Below are positions 1-64,000 of a DNA stretch of 64,000 nucleotides, in pieces. A program made the translations under genes and the position numbers. Source of the DNA: Emiliania huxleyi CCMP1516. Lineage: Eukaryota. The stretch covers positions 121,953 to 185,952 of the forward strand of contig NW_005201381.1 of assembly GCF_000372725.1 (NCBI RefSeq), in the 5' to 3' direction. Within the stretch, counting starts at the first letter, position 1; the number at the start of each line of letters is the position of its first letter. The notes beneath the pieces are model-generated. The model did no database searches and was not told where the DNA came from. It saw nothing but the letters and a program-made list of their open reading frames with translations.

Positions 1-1561
1 CTCGTCGCGCGAGCTGCAGCGGCTCGAGTCCATCTCGCGCTCGCCCATCTACACCGCCTTCACCGAGGCGCTCAACGGCGCGCCGACGATCGCCGCGATG
101 CGCGTCGCGCCGCGGTTCGAGGAGGCGTCGGTTCGCCGCTTCGACGCAAACACGCGCGCCGCCTGCCACCATGCACGCGCCCTGCAATGAATGGATAACT
201 CACGGCGTGCTCATGGACTCATCAAGGCGCGCCGCCTTCCTCATGTGCCTTCCTCATGTACGCGGAACGATCTCGGAACCTTCTCGGAACCTTCCCCTAG
301 GCGCGCTGCCTTCATCATGTACGCGGCCAATCGGTGGCTGTCGGTGCGGCTCGAGTTCCTGTCCAACCTCCTGCTCGCGCTCACGGCGCTCCTCGCCGTC
401 GCCTCGCACCTCGCAAACGGCGGAGGCGGCAAGGCGTCGGCCGGCCTCGCCGGCCTGGCGCTCTCCTACGCGCCGGGCATGACGGACACGCTCAACAACT
501 TGCTGCGCAACTTCACGTCGCTCGAGACGATGATGGTCGCCGTCGAGCGGCTCTCGCAGTATGCGCAGCTCGAGCCCGAGGAGGCGGCGGCCAGGGCGCC
601 GCCCTCGCCCCCCGCGGCGTGGCCGTCCGAGGGCGCCATCAGCTTCGCGGGCGTGCGGATGGGCTACCGGCCGGGCATGTCCGGGACACGACCACGACAT
701 GTCCGAGACATGTCGCATAGGCGTTCGGATGGGCTACCGGCCGGGACTGCCCGATGTCCTCTCCGACCTCCGCCTCGACATTGCGCCGCGCGAGAAGGTC
801 GGGATCGTCGGCCGCACCGGCGCCGGCAAGTCGTCCATCCTGGTGGCCCTCTTCCGGATGGGCGAGGTGCGCGCAGGCGCCATCCTCCTCGACGGGGTCG
901 ACATCTCGGCGGTGCCGCTGCCGACGCTGCGCTCGCGGCTCGCAATCATCCCTCAGGACCCGGTCCTCTTCACCGGCACGCTGCGCCAGAACCTCGACCC
1001 CTTCTCCGAGGCGAGATATCCCCGAGATCACCCGAGGTCGCCCGAGGTCGCCCGAGGTCGCCCGAGATGGACCGAGGTCGCCCGAGATCGCCCGAGGTCG
1101 CCCGAGGTCGCCCGAGGTCACCCGAGATCGACCCCTTCTCCCAGGCGGCCGACGCGCAGCTGTGGGACGCGCTCGACGCGTGCTCCATCGGTGGCGCGAT
1201 GCGCGAGCACCCCGATGGGCTCGGCAAGCCGATCGACGAGCGCGGCGCCAACCTGTCGATGGGTCAGCGGCAGCTCGTCTGCATGGCGCGGGCGCTGCTC
1301 AAGCGCGCGCGCATTCTCGTCCTCGACGAGGCGACCGCTTCCGTCGACATGGAGACGGACGAGCTGATCCAGCAGACGCTGCGCCGCGAGATGACCGACG
1401 CCACCGTGCTCACCATCGCCCACCGGCTCGACACCATCATGCAGGGCGACCGGGTGGTGGTCATGCACGCGGGGCAGGCGGTCGAGTCGGGCCCGCCGCT
1501 TGAGCTCCGCGACACGCCCGGCTCGCGCTTCGCCGAGCTGTGGAGCGCGCAACAGCAGTGA
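1..1561 (+). CDS. ABC transporter C family (MRP-like), 3' part: end of TMD2 plus NBD2; introns ~154-300, 651-720, 1011-1144
   Basis: Spliced frame reads [42 protein letters not shown], Walker [30 protein letters not shown], signature [17 protein letters not shown], Walker [10 protein letters not shown] and TIAHRL; stop TGA at 1559-1561. Confidence 0.95.
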
Positions 1562-1605
1562 GCGCGCGTGCGGGAGCCCTGGCGGCTGTCGCGGGCGCCA
1601 TGGGC

Positions 1606-1606
<1 letters not shown>

Positions 1607-1647
<41 letters not shown>

Positions 1648-4789: not shown

Positions 4790-5989
4790 TCAATGTGCCG
4801 GGCACACCCTGCCCGCGCAGCGGTCGGGTGGTGGCCGGTGAGAGTGAGGAGCAATGCTCGTCATGGAGTCGCACATCCTGATGAGCGCCCATCGGATGTC
4901 GGGCTTCAGCGGCAGCCGCCGGTGCACTGGGCGGGAGCTGGCGCCGCCCAGCTGCAGCTGCCTCTCAAAGCTCTCGATGTCGTCATCCGAGCAGTCTCCC
5001 AGCACTTGCGCCTGCTGCTGCTGCTGCTGCTGCGGCGGCGGCAGCGGCTGCTCCTCCGCCACCACCGCCTGCAGCTGCTCCTGTCCGCCCTGCTGCTGCT
5101 CCCCCTCCTCCTCTCCCCGCTGCTGCTGCTGCTCCTGCTTCCGCTGCTGCCGCTGCTTCTTCTTCTTCCGCTTCTTTTGAGCCGCGCCACCAGCTGCGCT
5201 CTCCTCATTGATCCACGCCATCAGGCTGTCGAGGTTCGCGCCGGCGGCCTTGGCTGGGCCGCCGCACTCGCCGCTGCTATCGCTCCCGCTGACGGCGTCG
5301 TCCTGGCAGGGCAGCATCTGCCGCCGCCGCTCCTCGAGCTTCTTCCGCAGCCGCGTCGCCCGGTCGCAGCTACCCTTCTCACAGCAGGAGCACTGGCCGG
5401 GCCAGCCGCCTCCGGGATCGGCGTCGAGCGCGTCGTACAGTGCGATCTGGTTCTTCTTGTGCTCCGGAGGTGGCGGCAGCCTCTTTGCCCCCAGCACGCG
5501 GAAGTTCTCCTCCGTGGCCGCCCTGACGACGCAGTCGTCGTCCACAGGGCACCAGATCAGCTTGGAGTTTAGCCCGAACAGGCGGATTTGGTATGGCACG
5601 CGCTCCTCGCGGTCTTCCCAGTAGGGGTCGTTGTACCACTGCTGCGTGACGACGCCGTTGACCCACTGCTTTGACGCGACTGACGCGATCACCTCGTCCC
5701 CGACCTGGAACCGCAGCTCCGTCTCGCTACTGCTGGCGTCGCGCGCGTCGTCGTCGCAGAGCTTGCGGACCGACGAGGCTGGCACGGTGACGTAATAGTG
5801 AGGGCCGTCTTGCTCTCCGCTCGAAAGGTGGGCGGAGGCGGAGGCTGCTTGCTCTCCGCTCGAAAGGTGGGCGGAGGCGGAGGCTGCTTGCTCTCCGCTC
5901 GAAAGGTGGGCGGAGGCGGCGGCTGCGTCGGCGAGCTGCTCCAGCATGTATGTACAAGCAGCGAACGGCAACTTTGCAGAGACTGTCAT
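4790..5989 (-). CDS. Hypothetical protein with an SH3/Tudor-like 'LRF..GD.V...PYQIRL...P.DDD..VRA' domain, a 39-bp x3 coding repeat and K/Q-rich tracts; 3' end uncertain
   Basis: Long ORF with plausible ATG at 5989; LRFQVGDEVIASV...WVNGVVTQQWY...VPYQIRL...IWCPVDDDCVVRA; ASASAHLSSGEQA repeats at ~5810-5920. Confidence 0.6.
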   Translation of the reverse strand: MTVSAKLPFAACTYMLEQLADAAAASAHLSSGEQAASASAHLSSGEQAASASAHLSSGEQDGPHYYVTVPASSVRKLCDDDARDASSSETELRFQVGDEVIASVASKQWVNGVVTQQWYNDPYWEDREERVPYQIRLFGLNSKLIWCPVDDDCVVRAATEENFRVLGAKRLPPPPEHKKNQIALYDALDADPGGGWPGQCSCCEKGSCDRATRLRKKLEERRRQMLPCQDDAVSGSDSSGECGGPAKAAGANLDSLMAWINEESAAGGAAQKKRKKKKQRQQRKQEQQQQRGEEEGEQQQGGQEQLQAVVAEEQPLPPPQQQQQQQAQVLGDCSDDDIESFERQLQLGGASSRPVHRRLPLKPDIRWALIRMCDSMTSIAPHSHRPPPDRCAGRVCPAH

Positions 5990-7659: not shown

Positions 7660-9729
7660 TCACTCAACCGACTGTGGCAAGAGCCCCTCGTTCGAGTAGA
7701 GGGCAGCGATGCCGCGGTGCAGCTCGAGGGCGTGCCGCTGCGCGTGCGACGCCGCGGCGGGCGTGTCCCACACACCGGGGTAGCGCGCGAACAGCGCGCG
7801 CGGCGCCCGCGCCAGCAGCCCGCCGATGGACGCGCCAACCTCGTGCAAGCTCTCTGCGCAGTTGGGGTGGAGCGGGCCGAGGAGAGCGCGCTGGGTGCGC
7901 CAGAGCTCGAGGGCGCTCTCGAGGAGCGCCAGCAGGCTCGGCGCACTCGGCGGCGCGCCGCTCTCCTCGAGCTGCAGCCGGATCGCCGCGAGCAGCTCGC
8001 GCCGGACGCGGGCGACGGCGAGGTGCCGCTCGCCGAGCTCTCGCACCTGTTCACGCAAGAGGTGTGAAGAGACGCTGTTCACAGGTGCCGCTCGCCGAGC
8101 TCTCTCACCTTCGGAAAAAAACGAAAGCAAACTCACGCGGACAACAGAACGGCGTGAAGACGCTGTCCGCTCGCCCGGCCCTCGCGCCAGCTCGCGCAGC
8201 ACCGCCGCGCACGCCGCCTCGTCGACGCCGCCTCCCGGCCCCGCACGCGCCGCGCGTCGCACCGCCTCCCTCGCGCCCGCCTCGAGAGTGAGGGTGAGTT
8301 CGTCCGCCTCGGCCGCGCCCGCCTCGGACGCACTTCGCGGCGGCGCGTCCCACTCGCTGTGCCGCTCCGCCTCGCTCGTAAAGTCGAAGTGGTCGAGGTG
8401 TCTGCTGCACGCCGCGGGGGTGAGCTCGGCAGGCTGCGCGTAGCAGATGAGCACCTCCTGCCCCTGCGGTGTGAATGCGCGGTGTGAATGCACAACGCGT
8501 CGGAGTGTGCCTGCGGGCACTGGCCAACGGCACTCGCAGCACCGCGTGGACGGCGGAAGAAAGGGAGCGACTGGCGCGTGACGCAAGGGAACAGTGCGAG
8601 TGTCTTCGCGGTGCTGAACACAGAGATGTGGATTCGGCGTCTGCCGGGGGGGGGGGGGGGGGAGCCTGAGCGATGTGCCGCGTGGCTCGCACGACGCTCG
8701 TCAGCGTGCCGCCTGAAGACGAAAGGGTCCAATCATATGCTACGCCCCGAGTGTGGGTTCGGGGGGTCTTCGCAGCAGTGAGGTAGGGGATACCGTCAAG
8801 AGTGGTTTCTTTTTCCAGGGGGGTGAGCGTGAACGGTCGTATGTGTCTCTGCGTCGCTCCCTCCGTGCCTTAGTCAACCTCCGCCCTGATGTCGCGTGTG
8901 TCTAGTCGCTGGCCAGACACTCTGTTCCGCCTCTCTGTCTACTCCAGCTTGCCGGCACGCAGCGCGGCCTTGTCGGCGTTGGCGCGTCGCGAGGGCGCGT
9001 GGTTGAAGATGGACTGGTGCAGGAACAGGCCCGAGGCGAACGCGTTCCAGCGGCACACGAGGCAAAGCCGCAGCAGCTCGGCCCGCCTGCCCTCGTCGCC
9101 GAGCCCGCCTACAAAAAGAAAGCGTGTCGCCGCACGCGACGACCGCCGTGAAGTCCTGCCCTCCTGCCCTCGCCGCCGAGGTCGGCCGCGCCCGGCTCCT
9201 GCAGCAGCGCGTCGACGCACGCGCAGTGCTCCTCCTCCAGGCGCGGCCGGTCAAAGGCAGACACGCTGCGCAGCTCCATCGGGTGCAGCCGCGAGAGCGC
9301 GGCCAGGGCGACCCGTCGCTCCACCGCGCTGCGCCGGAGCACGGACTGCAACAGCGAGAGCGGCTCGTGTTCGGCTGACGGCCAGGGCACAAAGGGCTGC
9401 TCCCATATCAGGACTTGGCCGGGCGAGATGTCGCGAGCCGCCACGAAGCCGCGGCCCGACCCCGGGATCTGCCGCACCGCAATCGGGCCGACCACACGCG
9501 GAGGGTGCTCGGGCCACACACAGAGCGCGTCGGCGGTGTTGACGTCGGCGGCAGCGGTCAGCCGGGGCGGGACAACGACCTGATCGCCATTGGCATCCGC
9601 GAATGGCGCGAGAGCGTTGCGCTTGCTACTGGCGGCGGTGGCGGGCACAGCTGGTGCGGGTGCGCATCCGGCTGTGCCGACCGGAGACGTGGGAGGAGGG
9701 TCCCCAAAGATGGACCAGACGTCATCCAT
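7660..9729 (-). CDS. SMYD-like SET-domain protein, multi-exon (introns include 9109-9191 and 8047-8187)
   Basis: IPGSGRGFVAARDISPGQVLIWEQPF, RWNAFASGLFLHQSIFNH, GQEVLICY, RHLDHFDF, and a C-terminal LGPLHPNCAESLHEVG TPR-like segment. Confidence 0.8.
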
Positions 9730-10795: not shown

Positions 10796-11192
10796 GATGA
10801 TGATGTGATGGATGCCCTCTCCTGTGTGTGTGAGTGAGTATATTCTCGACTGTCTGTGATTGTGCGTCGTGGGTTCGGGGTTGCTCTTTTTGTGTGAGTG
10901 AGTAAGAAAGAAATAAAAGAAAACAGACCAACCCAAACGAGGGATGGGGGAGGAGGACAGTGAGTATATTCCTCTCCCGGTGTTCGAGTTCAACTGGCTC
11001 AACTCCCCTGAGCGTGCCAACTGGGTCAACGACGTCAAGAACAAGCAAGCGGCAGACGTCCTCTTACCCTCGGCCCCAGTGGAGGGCGCCCGTACCGCCT
11101 AGCTCCGCGGACGGGCCCCTCCACCCTTCACGTATACGGATCATGTAGTCCCCACAATCGCTGTCGTGGGGTCGCTTGTCATGTGAGAGAGG

Positions 11193-14100
11193 TAAGAAAG
11201 AAAACAGACAACGCAAGGGAGGGATGGGAGGACGGCACGCCGCCACCACACAGGGATTTTAAGGAGAGGAGTGTGGTGCTAGCCGTCGCCCACCCTTGGG
11301 CGTCCGCCTCTTCCTGTCTCTCTTCGCAGTCCCTCGCCGACTCTCGCTGCAACCTTCATGCCACCCCGCGGTCGTCCCACTCTCGTCGTTCTCTCCCTTG
11401 TCGCTTCCTCCTCTGTCGCGTCGCTCTCCTGCTCTGCCTCATCCTGCGACGGTGCCGCCGCCTGCCGATCCCTTGCTCTCGCTGCTCGGCGCAGCTCTGC
11501 CCTCCTCGCGGCATATTTTGGCCCCTCGAGTTTATCGAGCTCTCCTCGCGCAAGGACGACTCGACTCTCTTCTGACGCCCACTGCGATCATTTGCCGCCA
11601 AGTCATATCGTTGCTCAGGTCCACTCTCTCTTCGAACACTTGTGCCTTCACGGATGATGCCGGCGCTGGGGTCCCCGTCGGGTGCATCGTGACAGCTGAC
11701 GGCGGGATTTCCACTGGCTCGTCCTCCTCGGAGTCGTCTTCCCCGGCTTCCTTCCGCTCGGCTCTACGTTCATTACGTTCATCGTGGCTCACCCTCCATG
11801 CCGTGAACAGGCGCTTTATCCACCCTATATTCTTCTCTCGTTCCTCTGCCCGTGCCTTGGTCTTGTCGTTGTTTCGCACCCATGTCTGCATGGCAGTCGA
11901 GGCTGCCTTCCCCACTACCTGTAGTTCACTCGTCACCTCTCCTGCGAGCTCCCCTCTGCCCTCTCTTTCTCTCGGGTATGGAGTCCGTGAGTGCGGGCAG
12001 CGTGCAGGCAATCACGGGCGCTATTTTGTCGTACTCCTCTTCGGCGAGCGCTCCAAATCTAGACCCTTTCGCCTTTAAGGAGGCTGCCCTCGCTCGTCTC
12101 AGGAATGTGGCGGTGTCTTTTGAGTCCGGCGCCTCCCGTTCAACTCTTGCTGTCGCCCTCGCCGCGTGTTTGTCAAGCTTCCGCAAGAAGTAACGCGCCT
12201 CTTCCTTATTTCCAGCGCAGCTGCCGCTCAGTATGTGCGCCAACGACGCCTGCGGTGGCTGACTGTCTTCTTGTTTCCAGTCGTCCCAGTCTCTCAGTTC
12301 TCCGAGTCTCCTCCTCGCCTCGCGCGCCTCTTTTTGTGGCCTCATCCCTAGCCGCCTTGCACGCTCTGCATCCCCCAGAACGCACTTCTCGTGGCGGGGC
12401 CCCTCATTCCCCGTTTCTTTTCCCCTTCTAGAATGCGCCTGTGGTGTGCCCCATGTGGCACCCCGACCTGTTGTCTCACCCTGGCTCCCAAGATCGTTTT
12501 GGTCGTCACATTGTGACCCCCGACGTCGTCGAATGTCGCCCGCCTGTCCTTTCCCCGTTCTCGTCTGGTAATCGCATCTTATTATCCCATCGATGCTTCA
12601 GGCTGGCTACAGCCACTTCGCTCCACAACCGTCCCGCCACCCCTGCCGTGTGCGATCCCGGCCTCACCGTTTTTCGATATTGCTCGCACACCCACTCGTG
12701 CGCGCTCTTACACATGTGTCCGTACGTCCGTCGGTCCACTATCTGGGACTATCTCCCTCTTCTGACTTCTCCAAATGACGTGTGAGTGTTAGAGTTGTTT
12801 GGTATTGCTAAAAATCTCTTCTCTGTGTTCCCTGCCGCCTCCCTTCGCGCCGTGTACATGCATGGCCGCGTCCGCACCGCGTCCCGCACCACTTTCGAGG
12901 CGTCCTCTGTGTCGTTATCCCCGAGCCTGTCTGAAAGAAAGAAAGAAAACACGCAACCCAAGGGAGGGATGGGAGGACGGCACGCCGCCACCACACAGGG
13001 ATTTTAAGGAGAGGTGTGTGATGCGCTAGCCGTCGCCCACCCTAGGGAGTCTGCCTCTTCCTATCTCTCTTCGCAGTCTCTCGCCGCTTCTCGCTGCAAC
13101 CTTCATGCCACCTCGCGGTCGTCCCACTCTCGTCGTTCTCTCCCTTGTCATTTCCTCCTCTGTCGCGTCGTTCTCTTCTGCCTCGTCCTGCGACGCGAGT
13201 CTGCTAAAGAAAGAAAGAAAACACACAACCCAAGGGAGGGATGGGAGAACGGCACGCCGCCACCACACAGGGATTTTAAGGAGAGGAGGGTGTGATGCGC
13301 TAGCCGTCGCCCACCCTGGGGAGTCTGCCTCCTCGTATCTCTTTTCGCAGTCTCTCGCCGCTTCTCGCTGCAACCTTCATGCCACCTCGCGGCTGTCCCA
13401 CTCTCGTCGTTCTCTCCCTTGTCACTTCCCCCTCTGTCGCGTCGTTCTCTTCTGCCTCGTCCTGCGACGCCGCCGCCTGCCGGTCCCTTGTTCTCGCGGC
13501 TTCTTTCGCCTCTCGGCGCAACTCCGTCCTCCTTGCGGCGTATCCTGGCCCCTCGAGTCTATCGAGCTCCCCTCGCGCAAGGACCACATTTCTGACTCCC
13601 ACTCCGATCATTTGCCTCCAAGTCATGTTGTTGCTCAGGTCCACTCTCTCTTCGAACACTCGTGCCTCTACGGATGATGCCGGCGCTGGGGTCCCCTTCG
13701 GATGCATCGTGACATCTGACAACTGAATTTCCACTGGTTCGTCCTCCTCTGAGTCATCTTCCCCGTCCTCCTTCCGCTCGGCTCTTCGCTCGGTACGTTC
13801 GGTGTGGCTCACCCTCCGCGAGTCTGCTAAAGAAAGAAAACACACAACCCAAGGGAGGGATGGGAGAACGGCACGCCGCCACCACACAGGGATTTTAAGG
13901 AGAGGAGTGTGGTGCGCTAGCCGTCGCCCACCCTGGGGAGTCTGCCTCTTCGTATCTCTTTTCGCAGTCTCTCGCCGCTTCTCGCTGCAACCTTCATGCC
14001 ACCTCGCGGCCGTCCCACTCTCGTCGGTCTCTCCCTTGTCACTTCCTCCTCTGTCGCGTCGTTCTCTTCTGCCTCGTCCTGCGACGCCGCCGCCTGCCGA

Positions 14101-14277
14101 TCCCTTGTTCTCGCGGCTTCTTTCGCCTTGCGCAACTCCGTCCTCCTCGCGGCGTATCCTGGCCCCTCGAGTCTATCAAGCTCCCCTCGCGCAAGGACCA
14201 CATTTCTGACTCCCACTCCGATCATTTGCCTACACGTCATGTTGTTGCTCAGGTCCACTCTCTCTTCGAACACTTCC
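11193..14277 (-). mobile_element. Head-to-tail array of four 5'-truncated copies of non-LTR retrotransposon family A (~11193-12925, 12932-13193, 13206-13816, 13829-14276)
   Basis: Each copy begins on + with (aaag)n-aaacac/agac-caagggagggatgggag...cacacagggattttaaggagagg and extends a different length; shared decayed ORF (VFEERVDLSNDMTWRQMIAVGVR; ASLAHILSGSC zinc-finger-like remnant). Confidence 0.85.
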
Positions 14278-15567: not shown

Positions 15568-16515
15568 TCATGACTTGCGCGTGTCTTCGAGGTCGAGCTC
15601 GGCGAAGAGCGCGCGCAGCTGCGCGACCACCTGCTCCATCAGCGGGATGGCCACGCGGATGTCGCTGAAGCAAGCGCTGCGCCGCACCGCCTAAGAGTGA
15701 GAGGCGGTAAGGTGGGACACACACACAGCGTGGTGGTGGTGGTGGTGGTGTGGTGGTGGTGGTGTGGTGGTGGTGGTGTGTGGTGGTGGTGGTGTGGTTC
15801 GGGCTCGGGTTGAGGTTCGGGTAATGGTTGGGGATGGGGGGGGGTGGGCGGTGAGGTGGGGGGTGGGGGGTCCTTCGAGGAGAGGTGGTTGGGCGACAGG
15901 CGCGCGACAAACTCGTCCCTCGACGGCACCTACTCTCGCGCAATCTCGCGTGATCTCGGGTCGGCTCGGCGGCGGTGGCACCGACTCGTCCTCCGACGGG
16001 CACCGCTGCGAGGGCCATCGAGAATGTGTTTTTGAGCAGCCAGCCGTGGAAGGGCTCGAGGATGGCGCCGTAGGCGGTGCGACACTTGGACGAGAGCGAC
16101 GCGCTCGTGTCGCACACCCCCTGCATCACCCCGACATAGTACTGGATCGTCCTCCGCATCCAGAGCAGCGCCATCGCTGCGGACGGGTCGGCGAGGACAG
16201 CGCCTACTCTCGGGTACTCCCGGGCTACTCTCGGGCACTCTCCCCGCTGCGGACGGTCGGCGAGCACGGCGCCCGGCTTGTGGATCCCCGCCTCGCGCTC
16301 TGACTCGAGCAGCTGCCGCACCGTGCTCACCCTGCCGGGCTGCTGCTCCGCGAGCCGCGCCCACACCTTGCGCACCTTTGCGACGTTGGACTCGTCGTTC
16401 TTGACGGAGAGGGCCATCAGCGGGCCGATGGCCTCGCCGAGCCGCCGGAGAGAGGCGAAGGCGGAGAGCAGCGGCTCGAGTTGCACCTGACCTCGGGTCA
16501 ATCTCGGGTGACCGG

Positions 16516-16548
<33 letters not shown>

Positions 16549-17700: not shown

Positions 17701-18022
17701 TGAGGTGAGGGGTGAGGGGTGAGGGGTGAGAGGGGGGAGGGGGGGCGAGGGCGAGGGCGAGGGCGAGGGCGAGGGCGAGGGTGCCTCCTCCTCCGCCGCC
17801 GCCCTGCCCGCTCGCGCGAGCGCCGAGCGAGACAGCGGCGGCGAAGGAGAGGACGGCGAGCGTCGAGAGCTCCTAAGGTAAGTTAAAGGTGGACCTCCCC
17901 ACACCGCCCACACACACAACGGTGGTGGGGCAAGGGCAGCCCTCGCGGCTCCGCGTCTGAGACAAGAGCCCCACGGCATTCAAAGTGCCAAGGCCCGGTG
18001 CGCGTGGGTGAGCGGGGTGCGA

Positions 18023-18154: not shown

Positions 18155-19204
18155 GTGCTCGAGAGCTCCTTGGCGAACGGCGAAGCGGCCAGCCGCAGCA
18201 GCAGCTCCAGCGGCGAGGGCGGCAGCTCGCGAGACTCGAAGCGGGCGAGGAGCCTAGGGGTAGGGTAGGGCTAGGGTTCACGACTCGAAGCGGGCGGGAG
18301 GCCACGCCGCCAAGACACGCCACCAAGACATCCGCCAGGGCGCACCCGTCAGCTCAGAGCATCGCGCGGACGGTTAAGGGCGACGAAATGCACACGGCTG
18401 GATACCGCCGAGGGCGTGTGCTCTCGCGTGCTAGTCGGGATACAACGATCTGGGTACACCGGATCTAACACCGCATCTAGGGCGCGGAGCCGCTGGGAGG
18501 TGGCGGCGTCCTTTGCGAGCGAGAACCAGTGCCCGTCGTTGTCGTCGCTCATGTGCGGCACGGTGAGGGTGACGCCGCTCGCGAGCGAGACGTCCACGCA
18601 GAACTCCTTGGACGTCGACCCGATCTCGGTCAGCCACACCCGACTCACCTGGGCAGCCTCTGGCGAGCCAGAGAGCCACACCGCCTCGACGTCCATGGGC
18701 AGCCTCCCGCCACCGCCCCGGGTGCCCGCCGCGCGAACGGCGGGCTCTGGCGTTTGCGACCTGATGACCGCCGGCGCGGCCGATGGCGCGGCTGGCGGCG
18801 ACGTGAGCGGCGAGGCAGCCTCGGCGAGCTGCCGCTTGGAGCGGGCCGCCGTGGAAGGCGACCGGGCCGGGGTGAGAGGATAAATCTCCTCGCTAATTTC
18901 GCTGTAGTGGTTGGCCTCGTCCTGGTCGGACGGCATCGCGCGGCTCTCTCGCGTCCCTGCTGCCTGAGCGACCGCTGCGCGAGGAGAGAAGGACGCAACC
19001 TCAGCGCGGGCGTCCTTCCGTTCACGCCCGGGACCGACGGTCCCCGTGGTTACCGGTAAACACGAATGCACCTCCTACTCGATAGCATGGAGGACGGGCC
19101 CACACGCACACACACACACACTGTGTGTGTGTGTGTCAGTGTGTGTGTGTGTGTGTGTGAGAGAGAGATTTTTGTGTTTTGTGTTTTGTGTGTGTGTTGT
19201 GTGT

Positions 19205-19284
19205 GAGAGAGAGATTTTTAGCAATACCAAACAAATCTAACACTCACACGTCATTTGGGGCCTGGAGCCCTGTTCACGCGCGCG
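19205..19284 (-). mobile_element. 3'-end fragment of RLE-type retrotransposon family B (other fragments at 12772-12820 + and 30794-30817 +)
   Basis: gagagatttttagcaataccaaacaa.tctaacactcacacgt.atttggggcctggagccctgttcacgcgcgcg is near-identical to 38905-38982. Confidence 0.85.
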
Positions 19285-19992: not shown

Positions 19993-20096
19993 AGTTACCC
20001 CCCCCCCCCCAGTGAACACTCCAGTGAGGGAGGGCGAGACGATCGAGGGGTCCCGTACCACGCGGAATCGACCCTATCCAGTGCTCAAGTGCTCAA
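19993..20096 (+). mobile_element. Dispersed repeat family C (SINE or LINE 3' end, with AGTGCTCA tandem tail); further copies at ~21656-21698 +, 32086-32125 -, 34073-34132 -, 34890-35097 -, 45722-45831 +, 51287-51479 -, 52398-52510 +
   Basis: cccccc-agtgaacactccagtgagggagggcgagacgatcgaggggtcccgtacca.gcggaatcgaccctatccagtgctcaagtgctcaa recurs 8 times, with a shared end and variable start. Confidence 0.85.
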
Positions 20097-20136
20097 TGTT
20101 GAGTTTGGCGGCTTTCTAAAAGAATTCTTAAAATAC

Positions 20137-45700: not shown

Positions 45701-46025
45701 TCGAGACCTGTGTTAGTGCCAGTGTTTGTTATGACCCCCCCCAGTGAACACTCCAGTGAGGGAGGGCGAGACGATCGAGGGGTCCCGTACCATGCGGAAT
45801 CGACCCTATCCAGTGCTCACAAGTGCTCAAGTGCCAGTGGCAGTATGCGCGCCAGTCCCGTGCGGCCCAGTTGTGCGAGGGAGTTTTGTTGTCTAGAACT
45901 TACCCAAACGAGCGATTTCTTTTCCCCGTTCTTTTGTTTTGTTTCGTCGCTGGCTGGTGCGGGCTGCGCTTTGTTTGTTTGCCACACACACGCACGCTTT
46001 TGGGGTCACCCCCCCCCCCACCCCG

Positions 46026-46225
46026 AAAGAAAGAAAGAAAGAAAAACAGACAACCCAAGGGAGGGATGGGAGGACGGCACGCGCCGCCACCACACAGGGA
46101 TTTTAAGGAGAGGAGCCGGCGCCCACCCTAACCCTTGGTCGTCTGCCTCTTTCTATCTCCCTTCGCAGTCCCTCGCCGATTCCTCGCTGCAACCTTCTTT
46201 TCACCTTTTGTCGTCGCTCTCCTCT
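46026..46225 (-). mobile_element. LINE family A short 3' fragment, adjacent to (GA)n at 46235-46282
   Basis: (aaag)n aaaacagacaacccaagggagggatgggaggacggcacg...cacacagggattttaaggagagg. Confidence 0.8.
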
Positions 46226-46498: not shown

Positions 46499-48468
46499 AT
46501 GGCGCGCAATGAGGAGAAGGCGCAGGCGATGCTCAACCGCTTCGTGGTGGCGAAGCGGGACGCGAACCGGGTGGACATGACGAAGCGGCCGTACCTCGCC
46601 TCGGAGTGCGAGGACGTGTCGCACTGCGAGGTTTACCGCGGCCAGATCCTCAAGGAGCTGTCGAAGAAGGTGTCGCTCATCCAAAACGAGGGGCTGGATG
46701 AGCACCGCGTGCGTGACCTCAACGACGCGATCAACAAGCTCATCCGAGAGAAGGGGCACTGGGAGCGCCAGATCAAAAAGCTAGGAGGCGCCCGCGCCCC
46801 ACCACCCCCTCCGCCCCCACGCCCGCCGCCCGCCGCCCGCCGCCCCCCTCCTCCGCCGCCCTCCACCGCTCCCCCGCCCCAGCCCCGCCCCGCCCCGCCC
46901 CACGGCTCGACCTTACCGCCCGCTCCAAACCGCGTGCGCGTCAGGCGCGGACCACTTTCGGACGGCGCCGCGGTTATTCGAGGACGACGCGGAGGAGGTT
47001 GCGACCACACCGCTCACCCACACTTTGAATGCCGTGCCAGCTCCTCTCGTCTAGACGTGGAGTCGCGTTTGACTAGCCTGGCCCTCGCCCCACCACCTTG
47101 CGTGTGTGTGGAGAAGTTCACCGTACCTTCCCTTACCTTAGGTTGTGCCGGGGAGAGGGTCGACCCGCTGACTTTACCGCCGCCCGAAGGCCGAGCGACC
47201 GCTCCCTGGAGCCTTCCCGACGCCGTGAATAGGTACCGCTACTTTGGCGCCGCCAAGAAGCTGCCGGGGGTACGAGAGCTCTTCCGCAAGCGCGCGGCCG
47301 GGGGCGGAGCGGCAACCCTCCTGGTCTGTTTGTGTCTGACAGCCGGCGTGTCTTTCTTGTCTTCAGGCGCGCGCCCGAGCGCGAGAAGCGGACGCGATTC
47401 GAGATGATGAAGGGCATCGACGCCGACTACTACGGGTACCGCGACGACGACGACGGCGTGCTCGAGGAGCTGGAGCGGGCGGCGGAGGAGGGCTCCCTCC
47501 AGCAGGCGCGCGAGGGCGGGGAGGGGCAGCGGGCAGGCACTTTTCCGAGAACGTTCCGAGACACCTCAGAGCTCTCGAGGCACCGGAGCTTCCTAGCTGG
47601 AGAGCTAGCTGGAGAGGGAGGGGAGGGCGGGGGGAGGGGGAGGGTGTGTGTGGGTGTGTGGGGGGGGGGGCGGGGGCGACACACTTCCAACACTTCCGAG
47701 ACACCTCCGCGACGTTTCCGCAACACCGTTCGGACCCTCCAGCTGGCGCGCCAGGACGCAGACACCTTCCTACCGAGCCAGACCTGCCAGAGACACCTGC
47801 AAGAGACCTCCCGCCTTCAGGACGCGCAAGCAGGCGCCTGCCTCCTCCTCTCTCTCCTCACACGCCGCGTCTTCCTTTTTGTCTGCAGGCGCGCGAGGAC
47901 TGGGAGGCGCGCAAGGCGGCGCGGCTGGCGGCGGGCGAGCCCGGCGGGCGGGGGCCGAGCCGCCGGCGACGCGCCCCCGCGCTGAACCTTCTCGGAACTT
48001 TCGTGCAGGCGAGCCGGCGGACGAGGAGGAGTCGGACGGGGAGGGCGACGGCGAGGACGCGCGGAGAGCAGAGCGGTTCCAGGTGCTCTCGCCGCTCCCG
48101 CCCTCCCTGCGCCTCTGCTCTCGCGGTCCCTCTCCCCTCGGCGAGGATGCCTCTCCCTCCCCTTCGCCGCCTCTTCCCTCCCAAACTGCCCCCCTCCTCC
48201 CTCTCTCCCGACTGCCCTCGCCGCCTCCCACTCTCCGCCTGTACCCGCCTGTACCTCACCGCCCTGGCTCCATGATCTCTCTCTCCCCAGCCCTCATCCA
48301 CTCCCCCGCACCTTCCAGGAGGCGCTGCCAGACCGCGAGGCGATCGAGCGCGCCATCCTCGAGAAGCGGAAGCGGGAGATGCTCGCGATGCTCGGCGGCG
48401 GCGACGCGGGCGGCGCGCCCAAACACAAGGAGGAGGGGTCGATCAACCTCGTGCCGAAGAGCTGGTAG
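46499..48468 (+). CDS. ISY1: Pre-mRNA splicing factor ISY1, multi-exon
   Basis: MARNEEKAQAMLNRF, KRPYLASEC, RVRDLNDAINKLIREKGHWERQIKKLGG, YRYFGAAKKLPGVRELF, IDADYYGYRDDDDGVL, IERAILEKRKREML. Confidence 0.95.
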
Positions 48469-49718: not shown

Positions 49719-50425
49719 TTTTCGCTGCCCGGCTCGGTTCAAGAAGAAAACCATCCCAGACAACACAGAACACCAGCGGAGCCCGGTCGGCTCCATCCCC
49801 ACGCCCCACTTCGCCGCCTGCCAAATCCGTGTGGGGGCGCCTGGCACCGCGGCGCGATTAATTCTTTAAGTGAGTTGTTGTAGTAGCAATCCTGGTCTGC
49901 GCTGAGTCCTGAGACGCAAGGATTGCGAGGAGTGCTGCTCACAGCCCCTAGTGCGAGACAGAATGTAGGTAGGTAGGTAGGTAGCAAGGTAGGAAGGTGA
50001 AGAACAGTCAGGCTCGGACTGGACACCAGCGCGGTATGGGTGGACGCGGGACAGGACACAGGAGAGTTGACTGACGGCACGCGTGAACGACACACACACA
50101 CACACAAGCCGTCACAAGACACTCAGCCATCTGGGCTGCCACACATCACGAGTAAGCGTACGGCACTACGCCACTCGCGGCCACGTCCCCCCCGTCGCCC
50201 CCCCCAGCACCCAACCGAGCCCCAAGAGGCGGCTAAGGCACAAACAACAGCACAACATCACAGACAGGCGCGACAGGGCACGCGACGTGTGAGACTAGAG
50301 CAGGACTACAGCAGGCTGCTCCGCCTCTAGCAAACTCGCCGGCTGGCGGGGCACGGACGAGCACGCGTGTGGGTTCTTGTGAGGTGTCTATTGGACGCTC
50401 CCTCGCGAGCGAGCGACGTATGGGT

Positions 50426-52094
50426 AATTTGGCCTGTGCGCGTTATTCTCGAATATCTTTGAGAATATAGAAGGTCCCGCGCACTTTCATATTCGAGAAT
50501 ATTCTCGAGAACATAGATGCCCCGGCCGGCTTTTCCCTCAAGAATATACGAGCTTTCCGCAGCCCTTGCTGAGGGAGGGTGTAGAGGATGTAGAGTGTAG
50601 AGCGCTGTAGAGCTGTAGAGATGTAGAGCGCTCTGGAGCGCTGTAGAGCTGTAGAGCTCTAAATCCGGCGCGTGACGATGTGAGTCCGATGTAGAGCGAT
50701 GTAGAGCGCGATTTTGTTGTAGAGTTTGTTGTAGAGGCTCTACAGCCAAACCGCCGGGAAGGCAGTTAACTCAAAGAGGTCGATCCGCGCTAATGGGGTG
50801 TCTCCGAGCTTACTGGAGCTCTGATGGACGGCCCTGACTATCCCTGACACACAGAGAGTCACTCTGACGGCACACAACACCCTATAACTGCGTCATGACC
50901 AGCCTGCCATGCGTCGCCGGTGCCGCATTCGTCGCAGTGCTTCTTTAGCAGGCGGTGGACTGTCGGCTGCGAGGACGGTCGCATTTGCGCGAGGCGAGGC
51001 GAGCATTGCTGCGCATTGCATGCGCCATGACTCGCGCCAGCGCGTGCGGGAGCTCCTGGCTGAGCGTTGAGTCCAGGCGAGTTGCGCTGGCCACGATCGT
51101 AACGCCGAGCCGAGCTGACGCGCCGAGGCGCCGGTCAGTCGCAGCCGTGAGGCATGTCACTGCAGCAGAGGCACCTGCCACCCATTGGGCGGGCAGACAG
51201 AAGGCCAGGGCAGCACTGGCAAGCGCAACGCGCCTCATGTCGGAGAGCGACCGTGCCTCGTTCGCCGCTTATGATGTAGAGTTTGTTGAGCACTTGAGCA
51301 CTGGATAGGGTCGATTCCGCATGGTACGGGACCCCTCGATCGTCTCGCCCACCCTCACTGGTGTGTTCATTGGGGGGGGTCATAACAAACACGGTACAGG
51401 ATCGAGGTGCACGCTGCCGAAGCAGTGTCGTCCCCCCTCTCCCCGACGGCGATGGCGGTGTGACCGATCGAGCTACAAGAGGAGCTTGTTCAGCAGGATC
51501 CGGGATAGTCAGATGCACTACTAGAGTTTGTTGTTGTATGATAGTAGTGTGGCAGTCTGGTCGGAGGGCGCCCGGGTCGCCCCGGAGCGGCCCCGCGCGG
51601 GGAGGTGGGTGGAGGGCGGGCACCACGCCATCGGGCAGGCCACGCGGGGACGCAGCCGGGGCCAGCGCGCGGCGCTAGAGGAGAGATTTCACGTTGTAGA
51701 GCGCCTCTACATCGCTCTACATCGGACTCACATCGTCCCGCGCCGGATGTAGAGCTCTACAGCTCTACAGCGCTCCAGAGCGCTCTCTCTACATCTCTAC
51801 ATCTCTATACCGCACAGTAGGTTTCAGGTCGAGAGAGAGAGATATTTTAGAAACCAGGTCGATGCCGACTGAAATCTTTAAGTTTTGGAGGTTCTGGAGC
51901 GGGTTTGGGAGCGACTTTTGGCACTTTGGAGCGATTTTTGGCCTCCGAGCTCCGTCGACCTGTCGGTCGAAATATTCTCCGTTTGTTGTAATATTCTCAT
52001 TATTCGAGAATATTCTCGAGAATATAGAGGGTCGGGGAGAATATATGCAAAAGATAGATAGTACTGGGCGAGAATAACGCGCACAGGCTAAATT
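50426..52094. mobile_element. Possible composite or nested inverted-repeat element
   Basis: Outer IR 25/26 identical (50426-50451 vs 52069-52094) with gagaatattctc-rich subtermini; inner ~80-bp GTAGAG-rich IR (50625-50706 vs 51705-51786). Confidence 0.55.
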
Positions 52095-53000
52095 GGGTAT
52101 GCCAGCCCGTGCTGCGGAGCAGCCTCGCCATTCGGAGCCGCATTCCGCCGGCACCGTCCTTGAGAGATTTTTAGAAGACAAAAAATCTGCACTCACAGTG
52201 ACTTGGGCTCGGCAGCTTGTTCCTTGAGTGCGCCCCGCCGTGGCGAGACGCACTCGACGAGGACGGCTTCGCCGGCGGTACCGAGTCGCACAGGCCGGCA
52301 ACAGTTGCAGCGAGGTGTGTGTGTGTGTACGAGGCGCCGCTTCGACGAAGCGAGGTTGGTAGGCGAGAGTCTGTCTGCGGGGCTTACGAGTCGCGCTGTT
52401 TGTTATGACCCCCCCCAATGAACACACCAGTGAGGGAGGGCGAGACGATCGAGGGGTCCCGTACCAAGGTACCATGCGGAATCGACCCTATCAAGTGCTC
52501 AAGTGCTCAAGAGTCTGCGGTAGGTAGGTAGGTAGGTAGGTAGAAAGGTGAAGAACAGCCAGGCTCGGACTGGACACCAACGCGGTATGGGTGGACGCTA
52601 GACAGATGATGACGACACGCACGAGCGACACACAGACACAAACAGGCTCACAAGACACACAGCCAGCGGGCTGCCACACACCCTGAGTAGGCGTACACAT
52701 AACTCAAGGCCACATCCTCCCTGTCGCCCCCCCCTGCACTGCGTTCGAGTCGCGCTGAGTAAAAAAAATTGTGCGTGTCACGGCGTGGAGACACTCGACG
52801 ATCGCGCAGTCCTCGAGTTTACGCCTTGGCCCCATCAATCCTCTCGATACTCCGAGCTTGTTCGCGCGCCCTGCACAGCGCCGCGGCGGCGACCTTTCGC
52901 ACACCCACGCCCCTTCTCCTCCCTCCGCCCGCGGCAGCGTGCCTCGCAGCCACGCACGCCTCCGACCGCCGTCGCCGGTGCCCCACCGCCACAGGCTCTA

Positions 53001-60600: not shown

Positions 60601-61485
60601 GAATCGTGGAGCGGCTGAAAGAGATGGGATTCCCGGAAGGCACTGCGGTGAAGGCCACCAGCGTGGAGTTTGTGGAATCCTCTAAACGCGCAAGCAACAA
60701 GGACAATGTCAAGATCATATCCCTCACCTTCGGCGGGCTGGCAGACCTTGCGTGCGAGACTGGGGTCACCTGCGACACAAAGGCCGACTTCTCCTGCGGA
60801 GACAACCTCGGCTCAACTGACTACTACGGGCAGCACGTCTGGTCGCAGGGCGCAGGTGCTGTCATGCAGGCGCTCACCGCCGCACGTGCCAAGTGGATCG
60901 GCGCCGTGGGAAATGCGGACTCCGTTCAAAAGCCGGTCGGTGTCCAAGCACCGGCGCAAGAGAGGGCGCCTTTCTACGACCCATTCTCGTACTCGCAAGA
61001 CAAGGGCGACTACGGCCTCCGATATAAGTGTACCGCAGGGACGTTCCCTGTGGGCATCTCGCTCGAATTCGACGTCGCGACTGAGTTCATCAACAACCTC
61101 GGTGGCATCCCCGGCGGACCTACCGTGGAGTGCACGGTCGAAGCGAGTGATGGGATCTACCCGCCCGGCGGACCGGACGCCGACTGCCCCTGCGGCTGCG
61201 GCTGCGTGTGCTCGGACCCCAGTAGCACCCTTCCGAAAGAGCTTCGGTATAAAGCGGCTGGCAAGTACTACGACGGCAAGAGCCACGAACCGATGGAGTT
61301 CGACTTGGTGTTGACGAACCTCACGCACTACAAGCCATTCAACTCCAAGTCGAACGGCCGGGGTCTCGCGGATGTAGACGGTCTATACGAGCACTCGTTT
61401 GCCGACGTCTCCATGGCCGCGGGCACAGACACCACCTTCCTGCTCACGGCAGTATTTGAAGGTGGCGATATCAACGAGCCAGAGC
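57657..61485 (+). CDS. Secreted multidomain protein: Cys-rich 'NNLGG' domain, two periplasmic sugar-binding-protein-like domains, then a second NNLGG domain that appears truncated; introns 58177-58274 and 58922-59078
   Basis: Signal-like MLGLLLPLAAPA; repeated NNLGG..CGCGC..PKE..(L/F)DLV.TN.T.Y.P; IIHGAIGNEFWNTWYEGA..ADGVIISVP..TNTD..YIGSANYDMG..QRKEGI and ITHA..TFWEIWYVGS..ADAIVITVP..PIVTTNTD..YVGSDNFHIG..RRFEGI. Confidence 0.8.
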
Positions 61486-62206
61486 GTCGCTCGCGCGGCG
61501 GCACACCTGCTCAAAAAAGGAAGGGCCCGGTTGGAGCCACGGGGCTCACGTACTCGCTCGGGGCGCCGCCTCACTCTGCGCCACTTTTGAGGCGTCGAGC
61601 CCATGAAGGTGAGGCGGCGCCCCGCGCGGCGCGTTCCTCGCCCTCCACGCCGACCCCTGCGCGCACCGCTCATCTTGGCCCTTCTTGGTTTACTCTCGCC
61701 CCCCCTGCTTGGGGAACCCGGCGGGACTCGCTTCTTATTTTTCGTAATGATTGTCGCCCTCGCAGCATTCGCTCCCCCCCCCCCCCCCCCGCCCCCCCCG
61801 GGGCCCTCTCCTGGCCCGCGCGCTTGCCGACGCGAGAAGATCGCGCGAGAGGGCAAAATGTGGGCAAAATGGCCTGTTTGCCCACCAACCCTTCATCGTT
61901 TGCACGTGTGGGACCAAGAAGCGCGGCCGCCCCTTCGTGGTGCCGCCAGCGCAGCCGTGGCGATGCACGTCGTGCCGAGCGAGTTCCAGCGAGCCCCCGC
62001 CGCCTCCACCCCCGCCGCCCACCGGCGGCGCGCCGCGAGCCTCTCTCTCTCGTTCACGCCATGTCTGATTGAGCATGTGGTACGCCTCACCCCTTGCAAA
62101 ACTCCGAGCCCTCACACGCAAAAAGACAATTCACCGGTGAGCCCAAGACTGAAGACGCAAAAACGATCTCGCAAAGAAAACAAAGAAAACCAAGGGGTCT
62201 GTCGTA

Positions 62207-64000
62207 ATGATGCTGTGGCTCGCGGGGGCGATCACTCCCTCGGCGTCGTTCGCTGGTAGGCCGCCTGCCCACCGCGTGGCACCGGCTCGCGCCGTGCAGC
62301 GCGCGCCAGCGCCGGCGATGCGCGGCGAGCAGGCCTTCTCCTTTGGCCCTGCGGCAGCGCTGCGGACGGCAAAGCGCAAGCTCCCGCAGGTCGAGTGGCT
62401 TGCGGCCGGCGAGGGCTCGGCGGAGAACAAGGTGGACATGCCGGACCACGTTGCACGCATCCTCTCGCAGCCGCACGCGCCGCAGCGCGAGGCCGAGAAC
62501 GATGAGAGGACGCACCGCATCCGCACGCGCTACGAGCAGGCTGCTGCCGATGCGCAGGCGCTGCGCGGGATGCTGGTGGGGGAGGAGGATGAGAAGGCGT
62601 GGTGGCGCACGCCGCGCGAGGTGCCGGCGGGTGGCCGGCCGGTGAGCAAGGACGACCCACTCACCGTGCTGGTGGCGGGTGGCGGGCTTGCCGGCCTGGT
62701 GACAGCGGCGGCGTGCCACGCGGCGGGCATGCGGGTCGCGCTGTTCGAGCAGGCGTCTTCGTACGCGCCGTACGGCGGCCCCATCCAGATCCAGTCCAAT
62801 GCGCTCCGCGCCATCCAGCGCATCTCCCCAGCCGTCTTTGAGGAGCTCGTCGCCGCGGGCACCGTCACCGCCGACCGCGTCTCAGGCCTCAAGATCGGGT
62901 ACCGCAAGGGCAACAAGCTGGCGGGTCTGTACGACCGAGGCGACTGGCTGGTGCGGTTCGACACCATCGGCCCTGCCCTCGAGGCGGGGCTCCCTGCGAC
63001 GGTCGTGGTCGACCGGCCGGTGATTCAGCAGATTCTGGTCAAGCATGGCTTCCCCGACGGCACCGTCCGCATCAGCTCGCGCATCGAGGGGTGGGAGGAC
63101 CGCGGCGACGGCCGCGGCGTGGTTGCGACGCTCTCCGACGGCACCAAGGCGCACGCGGACGTGCTGGTCGGCGCGGACGGCGTCTGGTCCCAGATCCGCA
63201 AGCAGATGCACTCACTCGGAGAGGGCGCGGGCGGCTTCGCCGCGTCGGGCGCGGCGGGAGGTGCGCTCGACGAGGCGGAGGCGCGCAAGCTGTGAACAGC
63301 GTCTCTTCACACCTCTTGCTGTGAACAGGTGCGCTCGACGAGGCGGAGGCGCGCAAGCTGTGAACAGCGTCTCTTCACACCTCTTGCTGTGAACAGGTGC
63401 GCTCGACGAGGCGGAGGCGCGCAAGCTGTGAACAGCGTCTCTTCACACCTCTTGCTGTGAACAGGTGCGCTCGACGAGGCGGAGGCGCGCAAGCTGGCGC
63501 GCGACACCGTGCGGATCGCGGCGCAGGCGGATCGCCGCTTCTCGGGCTTCACCTGCTACGCGGCGCTGGCGCCGCACCGCGCATCAAACATCGAGGACGT
63601 CTCGTATCAAATCCTGCTCGGAGAGAAGAAGTACTTTGTGTCGACCGACGGCGGCGGCGAGCGGCAGCAGTGGTTTGCGCTCATCCGCGAGCCGGCGGGC
63701 GGCGTCGATCCGGAGCCCACGGACGAGGACCCAACGCCAAAGCTGACGCGGCTGCGCCAGGAGTTCTCGTGCAGCAGCGGCGACGCCGACGGCAACGTCT
63801 GGGACCCGTTCGCACTCGAGCTGATCGAAGCGTCCGCCGAGAGTGACATCAAGCGGCGCGCCCTCTGCGGCGGGTCGCCGGGTCGGACATGTCGAGGACG
63901 CGTCCACGACATGTCCAAGACATGTCCCGTAGGCGCGACCTCTACGATGGGGCGCCCCTCCTCGCCACTTGGGACCCGCGTCGCTGGTGGTCGCCGTGGG
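62207..64000 (+). CDS. ZEP: Zeaxanthin epoxidase-family FAD monooxygenase, plastid-targeted, 5' part; introns 63261-63464 and 63856-63932
   Basis: Signal plus SASF motif; [14 protein letters not shown]...[69 protein letters not shown]. Confidence 0.92.
63261..63464 (+). repeat. Three perfect 68-bp tandem units forming an intron
   Basis: (gtgcgctcgacgaggcggaggcgcgcaagctg-tgaacagcgtctcttcacacctcttgctgtgaacag)x3. Confidence 0.95.

Follow-up and report, generated by a model that had tools for sequence, protein, structure and literature searches.

Introns made of an exon duplicate and a recurring filler in Emiliania huxleyi suggest a copy-and-paste route of intron gain

The question of where introns come from is an old one; most introns that were gained carry, according to the part of the literature drawn on here (PMC3443670), no trace of their source. 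A stretch of 64,000 nucleotides of Emiliania huxleyi CCMP1516 (contig NW_005201381.1, positions 121,953 to 185,952), here called the window, raises the question of what builds introns that do carry such a trace. An earlier note on this DNA had claimed that about a dozen introns in unrelated genes begin with a copy of the exon that follows them, and that a short filler ending in AG completes the intron. These introns are real and more numerous than claimed. All 12 intervals listed in the note have GC or GT donors and AG acceptors, their removal restores an open reading frame, and the identities quoted for three of them were reproduced (24/25, 31/36 and 32/32). The exon-copy introns and associated segments of the window are as follows.

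154–300, forward strand: ABCC transporter intron of two units (154–226 and 227–300) with unrelated fillers
651–720, forward strand: ABCC intron, 24/25 exon copy and a filler of 11-nt repeats
1011–1144, forward strand: ABCC mirror intron, in which a duplication of 20 nt spans the splice site and gives both intron ends; 10-nt minisatellite filler
8047–8187, reverse strand: SET-like gene intron, an old decayed unit (8109–8187) and a young unit (8047–8108); junction placed from the reading frame only
9109–9191, reverse strand: SET-like gene intron, exon copy starting 6 nt inside; junction placed from the reading frame only
15930–16003, reverse strand: GLTP intron, decayed exon copy and a filler of 10-nt repeats
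16204–16272, reverse strand: GLTP intron, exon copy and a filler of 10–11-nt repeats
22279–22344, forward strand: anchored exon-copy intron absent from the earlier list, in a gene that we take to be HAD-like
25741–25895, reverse strand: intron with a 31/36 exon copy in a gene for a conserved secreted protein, presumably START-like
47159–47232, forward strand: ISY1 intron added to the earlier list, decayed exon copy at offset 3
47290–47366, forward strand: ISY1 intron added to the earlier list, weak anchored exon copy (p = 0.007)
47506–47888, forward strand: expanded ISY1 intron, exon copy at the donor
47935–48008, forward strand: ISY1 intron, decayed exon copy and an 11-nt-repeat filler in common with 227–300
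63261–63464, forward strand: zeaxanthin epoxidase (ZEP) intron of three identical 68-nt units, each a 32-nt exon copy and a 38-nt shared element; GT donor
63427–63464, forward strand: the 38-nt mobile filler in its type copy, from the 3' unit of the ZEP intron; it supplies the AG acceptor
63465–63496, forward strand: ZEP exon segment copied at the start of each unit, 32/32 identity
63856–63932, forward strand: ZEP intron, decayed exon copy and an 11-nt-repeat filler in common with 651–720

Of the 11 forward examples, 10 do have the copy placed at the donor (p ≤ 0.005, with 604 cross-gene pairs as the null). The exception is 9109–9191, where the anchored copy gives p = 0.68 and the internal copy scores 15.5 against a null maximum of 9.5; the mirror arrangement of 1011–1144 was confirmed. 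Across the 27 window introns modelled by hand in eight genes, 12 open with a copy of the exon that follows (p ≤ 0.007); a further two have an offset copy and one is the mirror case. The 27 introns are those of our own gene models, and because the genes were partly chosen for containing the earlier examples, the 12/27 share is probably too high for the genome as a whole. This count excludes a two-intron gene model near 17.4–17.8 kb as well as doubtful models at 23.7, 41, 53–56 and 57.6–61.5 kb. Shuffled controls gave 0–1 matches at a score of at least 12 in six replicates, and a second control gave none in one replicate.

In these introns the donor (GC, GT or GA after G) comes from the duplicate and the AG from the filler or a second duplicate; taking out one duplicate together with the filler restores the protein exactly. 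The evidence for junctions comes from proteins. Exact restoration, also claimed earlier, stands for ABC and ZEP, whose junctions agree exactly with transcript-type proteins; it does not extend to the SET-like gene, which is without protein support, or to 25741–25895, where the exact donor is uncertain because all four homologues displayed are one residue shorter. The latter gene gave no Pfam match. The GLTP profile of Pfam aligns at positions 3–66 and then 70–133 around intron 16204–16272. Among 61 ISY1 homologues, 49 are ungapped across the junction of 47506–47888, the other 12 not covering it, and 15 are ungapped across that of 47935–48008, a poorly conserved region. Homologues on contigs of 10–31 kb appear, by gene calls, uninterrupted at the two ZEP intron positions (8/8 and 7/8) and at the ABC positions (3/3), which suggests that these positions are not ancient. 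Two proteins read into ZEP intron 63856–63932, so this intron is present in other assemblies.

Parts of the earlier description had to be revised. The description of a single exon copy and filler per intron fails for 154–300 and 8047–8187, which hold two units, and for 63261–63464, which holds three. A metagenome locus (L053) carries one 69-nt unit where the window ZEP gene has three; the copy number may therefore be an allelic or assembly effect. The fillers are moreover not unique, a point that the earlier note had missed: SET-like filler 8042–8084 matches the ZEP filler at 43 of 44 nt, and the young SET-like unit joins a 25/26 exon copy to the same element at 8047–8083. The 38-nt element has a 10-nt direct repeat at both ends and internal inverted hexamers. 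The statement that fillers lack terminal inverted repeats holds only in part: this element shows no inverted repeat of greater length at its ends, but the 10-nt terminal repeats are themselves imperfect palindromes, self-complementary at 8 of 10 positions. A selected hairpin in the element found no support: it folds no better than shuffled sequence (z −0.5), and covariation is not significant (p = 0.31 and 0.05). Rfam returned no match across 63200–64000.

This 38-nt filler, known in the window from two genes, is present far beyond it. A metagenome search with a 20-mer of the element gave 130 matches in 120 stretches, of which 109 had the canonical 3' end and sufficient flank, and these resolve into 100 distinct downstream flanks. 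The exon copy exceeds the 99th percentile of the null at 83 of the 100 sites and the null maximum (300 cross pairs) at 75. In these 75 best sites the introns are 59–79 nt long (median 68), with lengths modulo 3 distributed 24/25/26; the copies start with GC in 40, GT in 22, GA in 9 and another dinucleotide in 4, and G occupies position −1 in 60 of 71. Over its first 18 nt the copy is about 0.9 identical to the exon, and this identity falls to background near 30, so that the 5' ~30 nt are specific to each locus. The 3' end is the canonical one in 109 of the 130 matches, a fixity that selection for splicing could mimic. Most sites hold a single unit with the exon directly upstream; another unit follows 6 of the 100. 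Two loci in different genes (L032 and L058) share a whole 67-nt intron, the sharing ends 3 nt before the donor, and the 5' half of the shared intron resembles the L058 exon. This is the only whole-intron transfer seen among 4947 pairs. None of 73 probes found an empty allele outside its own tandem units, at loci that were selected for the element. The 20-mer did not occur in viral contigs, and a single prokaryotic match was dismissed as chance because the rest of the element is missing there. Of 90 flanks, 72 score best as sense coding under a rough model, one that got a known gene wrong, and clear non-genic copies were missing among the 100 flanks. The recurrence of one filler at about 100 unrelated sites is likely the signature of a copy-and-paste process that creates introns.

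The same layout bears on donor usage. GC donors reportedly make up 56–65% of donors genome-wide in E. huxleyi, a majority so far unexplained. The donors of the new introns are GC in 52, GT in 33, GA in 9 and GG in none of 100 cases, while exon G-G contexts are followed by C in 416, T in 93, A in 154 and G in 189. Likewise none of the 100 downstream flanks begins with GG, though G follows 22% of exon GG (189/852). The proposal that duplication could account for the excess of GC donors thus gains support, recruitment of donors from exon sequence being a source of GC and a quantitative route toward the majority.

Perfect duplications are 16–37 nt long (n = 52), with a mode of 24–25 and no evident 10.5-nt periodicity; the strict ungapped scan behind these lengths recovers only three window introns. 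The argument that long, variable duplications set these introns apart in origin from MITE-type introners is borne out by this range. Copy length and filler length are negatively correlated (rho −0.70, n = 98; −0.73 in 42 perfect cases), a relation that is partly built in by boundary placement and fits a length filter. Several further filler families have the same layout, and AT-rich fillers share motifs without a fixed sequence. Templating of fillers from their own flanks was rejected (p = 0.76). The idea that the duplication corresponds to a methylated nucleosome linker found no support, the duplicated segments having no CpG excess (p = 0.70, n = 59).

The element behaves like an introner with a long, variable target duplication that makes up about 40% to nearly half of the intron. 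Similar sequence lies in introns with 100 distinct flanks, and splicing is precise through carried or recruited splice sites. The survey of Gozashti et al. 2025 (PMC12130899) defines introners by similarity near both intron ends, which these elements lack; surveys of this kind would overlook, or list too few of, the elements that have a local duplication as their 5' half. The supplement of the survey lists an E. huxleyi family, fam24, with spans of ~68–70 nt and '10bp terminal direct repeats' that co-opts its 5' site and carries its 3' site, but differs in its count of five copies, in having only GT donors and a duplication of 2 bp, and in its unknown class. On this table description, fam24 may represent the 38-nt element. 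An arrangement in which the duplication gives the donor and the insert the acceptor is already known. As far as the preprint was consulted, dinoflagellate introner-like elements of Symbiodinium and Polarella (bioRxiv 10.1101/2020.10.14.339549) take the donor from the 5' end of the duplication (G then A, C or T) and share the insert-borne acceptor, flexible registers and GA and GC donors, but their duplications are fixed at 3–8 nt per class and accompanied by inverted repeats. The introns attributed to staggered double-strand-break repair in Daphnia pulex likewise have a direct repeat common to the intron end and the neighbouring exon, inserts with internal repetition and repeated events at one site; their repeats are shorter (4–12 bp, 33 cases), and the portion of that paper used describes no multi-copy filler family (PMC4202315). 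The tandem genomic duplication of Rogers (PMC3443670, in part) likewise leaves an exon copy in the intron and can derive both splice sites from a duplicated AG-G. In E. huxleyi, however, the copies are separated in all counted cases by foreign filler, the usual source of the acceptor, and the duplication alone is shorter than the intron.

Among mobile elements, the variable duplication departs from the short, fixed one of MITE or DDE-type elements and matches non-LTR and Penelope-like retroelements (PMC9977147, PMC8557442) and Replitron-1 of Chlamydomonas (PMC10288648), which are copy-and-paste elements with one fixed and one variable end and head-to-tail copies, traits that the E. huxleyi introns appear to have too. 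Replitron-1 further has short terminal direct repeats and a fuzzy end derived from its parent. The sections of these papers drawn on do not describe intron-making in this way, and the likeness is one of insertion pattern.

We place at somewhat below an even chance the reading that these introns, each a 16–37-base exon duplicate and a 30–55-base filler of a recurring family, are new insertions at staggered nicks, most likely made as the reverse transcriptase of a retroelement copied the 3' portion of intron RNAs at the nick. Nicks about 25 nt apart would duplicate the target, and the filler would be copied from a different intron, in most cases from its last ~38 nt and now and then from its full length. 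Selection would keep only inserts that lie on a usable donor and total about 60–80 nt; every surviving insert could serve as a new template, and the flanking direct repeats would then permit tandem expansion of the unit. The recurring families, one of them a discrete multi-copy element, argue that fillers are copied from elsewhere and are more than random filler left by repair. Insertion in a target-primed style, with duplications of variable length, seems to take place in this genome, since an RNase-H-like repeat in the window includes one truncated copy flanked by direct repeats of 43 nt, along with three fragments arranged head to tail and bounded by one 11-mer. Its RNase H match lies below the Pfam cut-off (E 0.008), no reverse transcriptase or endonuclease turned up, and the fillers bear no likeness to its tail, the one candidate partner examined. 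The absence of clear non-genic copies speaks against random target-primed insertion, which predicts no such bias, and splice sites deep within the duplication, with both sites taken from the duplicate (21 of 46 non-element cases), also count against the reading, as do the failure of the probes to reveal an empty allele and the single whole-intron transfer. Target-primed reverse transcription is our best guess for the enzyme, with insertion by a repair polymerase as its main rival. A bolder extension, which we hold to be doubtful, is a transposase-free cycle in which reverse transcriptase pastes 3' halves of excised introns into staggered nicks, the duplication providing donor and length; it would have built perhaps at least 40% of E. 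huxleyi introns and driven the predominance of GC donors.

The repair rival, tentative in our judgement, would have paired nicks filled in and the filler added by a Pol theta-like end-joining polymerase through slippage, snap-back or template switching onto intron DNA, selection keeping what can be spliced. Significant internal direct repeats in 29 of 46 fillers, slightly raised inverted repeats (mean +0.55 nt, p = 0.006), the variable splice register within the duplication and the resemblance of the L032 target to the L058 donor region fit it, and AT-rich fillers, which adjoin perfect copies more often than others do (8/11 vs 10/35), suit a slippage-prone polymerase equally well. The Daphnia introns are a precedent, although with much shorter repeats. 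A non-repetitive 38-nt filler with one 3' end at 100 sites and the lack of local templating weigh against repair, as does the expectation that neutral intergenic events would be common, whereas none was seen. Selection for splicing could, under any mechanism, account for the constant 3' end as well as for the G-G start.

It is improbable that the 38-nt filler is a very small non-autonomous DNA element mobilised by a HUH (Replitron-like) or other transposase, with the other fillers as further families. The 10-nt terminal direct repeats, the fixed and fuzzy ends and the variable duplications resemble Replitron-1 in outline, and putative Replitrons are reported from two haptophytes (PMC10288648, in part). 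The fixed end, however, does not follow the RG-3' insertion rule and abuts G then C, T or A on the sense strand; the hairpin is unsupported, other Replitron families in the same source lack duplications, and minisatellite and AT-rich fillers have no defined termini. It is similarly unlikely that no new positions arose and that a duplication over an old 3' splice site, followed by precise loss of the old upstream intron, left an exon copy and an old tail. The multi-unit introns agree with this, and G directly follows AG in 26 of 27 window introns, so any 3' site is a potential donor; but single units predominate, relatives appear uninterrupted by gene calls, and one tail at 100 genes needs a separate explanation. 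An origin in assembly errors, to which the single ZEP unit of L053 might point, or in chance likeness between GC-rich sequences is already largely refuted and highly improbable given the same structures in independent assemblies (L012, L053), the nearly empty shuffled controls and the lone, incomplete prokaryotic match.

Each of these introns records its target length, its filler family and its relative age, the last readable from decay of the exon copy. The process appears to be genome-scale in a globally abundant, bloom-forming alga with many sequenced strains, which makes gain rates, polymorphism and the enzyme directly testable. The range from perfect to decayed copies had been likened to an age series, and this is supported: the more an element has diverged, the poorer its exon copy tends to be (rho −0.29, p = 0.007, n = 84), and differences from exon to intron run 21 to 9 in the AT-to-GC direction.

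Introns of Emiliania huxleyi that begin with a copy of the following exon are real and general in this species. For the gene at 62207, two proteins assigned to E. huxleyi CCMP1516, one of which is also present in a transcriptome set, match the first exon at 100% identity. Hand modelling gave 27 frame-restoring introns in eight genes, a set biased toward the examples of the earlier note, and their copy scores were set against a null of 604 cross-gene pairs. A donor-anchored exon copy (p ≤ 0.007) is carried by 12 of the 27, a copy offset by 3–6 nt and scoring above every cross pair by two, and the mirror case, with the copy at the acceptor (intron 1011–1144), by one. Intron and following exon have the same first four bases in 13/27 (null 12%), and the first exon base after the intron is G in 26/27. 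When the window was scanned blind, seven of the 12 introns originally listed came up again, together with two new ones, and six shuffled replicates gave 0–1 matches at a score of at least 12.

The junctions are predicted from protein, Pfam or frame comparison. In the zeaxanthin epoxidase (ZEP) gene, excision of introns 63261–63464 and 63856–63932 gives a protein matching database protein P0001 across the window-covered part; junctions 1 and 2 are ungapped in 102 and 97 of 120 homologues and gapped in 3 and 0, the remainder not covering them. Within a near-identical cluster of eight ZEP proteins, junction 1 is spliced in six, and junction 2 is spliced in three, read into the intron in two and not covered in three. 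Excision of all three ABCC transporter introns exactly reproduces the C-terminal 402 residues of P0121, which has 1027 residues and is encoded on a 3179-nt contig. Of 11 cluster members, two of which come from a transcriptome set, 9, 10 and 10 agree at these junctions, the others not covering them. Among 61 ISY1 homologues, 60, 54, 58, 56 and 49 align without a gap at junctions 1 to 5; at the final two junctions just 15 and 8 do so. Pfam coordinates are contiguous across GLTP intron 16204–16272, and homologues are one residue shorter than the spliced prediction at intron 25741–25895, in a secreted-protein gene. Junctions of the SET-like gene are predicted from reading frame alone; this label, like START-like, HAD-like and ferredoxin-like for other genes, is assumed from motifs.

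The fillers are shared, a point missed in the earlier note. The ZEP filler, a 38-nt element, and the end of the SET-like gene intron are identical at 43/44 nt, and a 20-mer of it matches at least 120 metagenome stretches (about 350 estimated); other window fillers pair off by 10–11-nt repeat type. Two of the matching stretches correspond to loci of the window itself as found in other assemblies (96–98% identity), which rules out an assembly artefact except for the ZEP unit copy number, 1 in stretch L053 and 3 in the window. From 130 hits listed, 14 lacked the usual 3' end and 7 lay too close to the edge of a contig; the other 109 were analysed and represent, among the matches listed, 100 distinct downstream flanks. 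Among these, the exon copy exceeds the 99th percentile of the null in 83 and its maximum in 75; scores are inflated in 6/100 because another unit follows. The 75 above-maximum sites have donor-to-acceptor lengths of 59–79 nt (median 68) with even mod-3 classes, and their copies start with GC (40), GT (22), GA (9) or other bases (4). Flanks score best as sense coding in 72/90 cases under a crude coding model. Several of the 14 hits without the usual 3' end are loop-inverted or on the opposite strand and still read as introns. In stretches L006, L034, L071 and L100, the element's 9-nt loop between inverted hexamers is flipped and the 3' end is canonical.

Exon-copy intron formation is a general process that extends beyond a single element. 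Other copy-plus-filler cases in 168 kb of flanks amount to 63 rows, some of which overlap, whereas one shuffled control yielded 0. When spacer-separated direct repeats were sought by an unconstrained scan, 120 events emerged, 64 with the element and 56 others; the splice register is usable in 61/64 and 46/56 (chance 60%) and lies at the edge in 54/64 and 25/56 (chance 23%), respectively. Perfect duplications span 16–37 nt, with a mode of 24–25 (n = 52). Filler types comprise several 10–11-nt minisatellites and very AT-rich sequences (GC 3–35%), the latter adjoining perfect copies in 8/11 cases versus 10/35 for other fillers. Internal direct repeats are enriched in fillers and inverted repeats weakly so; compared with their own flanks, fillers are not copied from them. 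Introns are reportedly described in the 2013 E. huxleyi genome paper as favouring 10–11-bp tandem repeats. At six metagenome loci (L045, L073, L025, L112, L099, L001), fillers of 3–25% GC, with frequent stop codons on either strand, lie in a gene context of about 70% GC and adjoin perfect 17–37-nt duplications; these fillers are probably the youngest family. By eye, introns 46998–47141 (+) and ~17873–17988 (−) of unrelated genes have in common a degenerate sequence of about 115 nt that starts and ends in matching motifs, possibly a further intron family without an exon copy.

Exon-copy introns very probably represent a distinct variant of insertional intron gain in which the donor is recruited. 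Introner surveys already describe donor recruitment from target duplication; the duplications are 3–8 nt in dinoflagellates (10.1101/2020.10.14.339549) and intron-exon repeats are 4–12 bp in Daphnia (PMC4202315), whereas perfect duplications here are 16–37 nt. A 2025 survey (Gozashti et al.; PMC12130899) lists three E. huxleyi introner families, of which fam24 (5 copies, 10-bp terminal direct repeats, 5' site co-opted, 3' site carried, 2-bp duplication) may, by its table description, be the 38-nt element. No paper listed in the literature searched, which takes in few subscription journals, describes exon duplications of such length for introns of E. huxleyi. The idea that the copy mechanism could explain the excess of GC donors gains support: the 100 element sites use GC 52, GT 33, GA 9 and GG 0 times, against exon availability of 416, 93, 154 and 189; GT is accepted about 3 times better per available site, but GC sites are 4.5 times commoner in exons. 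GC is given as 56–65% of E. huxleyi donors in PMC4028052.

These introns combine duplication, precise splicing and shared fillers. Duplication-plus-insert gains of some kind very probably produced them, and insertion would occur at staggered nicks. Two metagenome loci in different genes, L032 and L058, have a whole 67-nt intron in common whose 5' half resembles the L058 exon; intron sequence was therefore copied between loci with variable 5' extent. Target-primed reverse transcription, the leading candidate for the insertion route at somewhat short of an even chance, is consistent with a 3' end that is fixed and with a 5' end and a duplication that both vary. An RNase-H-like repeat in the window is flanked by a 43-nt direct repeat, and truncated fragments of it, arranged head to tail, have one 11-mer at their boundaries. 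Against this route, fillers and repeat have no tail in common, no enzyme was found in the window and the element matches listed include no clear non-genic copies; fixed ends could be due to selection under any route. Insertion by a repair polymerase is the main rival and somewhat less likely; a DNA element of Replitron type is improbable, and equally so an origin by duplications that spanned old splice sites.

Mismatches between the two copies, compared over their first 16 nt, occur at 32/896 positions; in 21 of them the exon has AT and the intron GC, and in 9 the opposite holds. More diverged elements have poorer exon copies (rho −0.29, p = 0.007), in keeping with the suggestion that perfect-to-decayed copies form an age series. 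The ZEP intron positions are uninterrupted in 8/8 and 7/8 homologues of about 80% identity, chosen from earlier match lists for lying on 10–31-kb contigs; the positions are young if these proteins were called from genomic DNA without splicing. No empty allele was found at element loci, which were selected for carrying the element.

Further repeats in the window are as follows.

20089–21655 (−), degenerate retroelement-like repeat, weak RNase H match, short T-rich tandem tails
11183–12181, 12933–14275, 28010–28500, 46025–46197, its 3' fragments
20003–20096, 32086–32124, 34074–34133, 34897–35088, SINE-like dispersed repeat
45722–45831, 51286–51478, 52397–52511, further SINE-like copies
12771–12819, 19199–19284, 30794–30824, 38902–38981, short dispersed AT-rich repeat adjoining (GA)n tracts

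One copy of the retroelement-like repeat has its flanking direct repeat matching at 42/43 nt, and the truncated fragments number three. The second dispersed repeat, of 100–190 nt, ends in an 8-nt tandem tail and is SINE-like in look. An inverted repeat pair, 50420–50730 and 51700–52094, about 1.3–1.6 kb apart with a dispersed-repeat copy between, is a possible MITE-like composite. Long intron-poor ORFs at 57.6–61.5 kb (+), 38974–40347 (−) and 37143–37790 (−) look unlike the intron-rich genes, and a Pfam search of them gave no confident match. Perfect or near-perfect tandem triplications of 39 and 44 nt, without filler, lie at 5809–5926 and 31766–31897.
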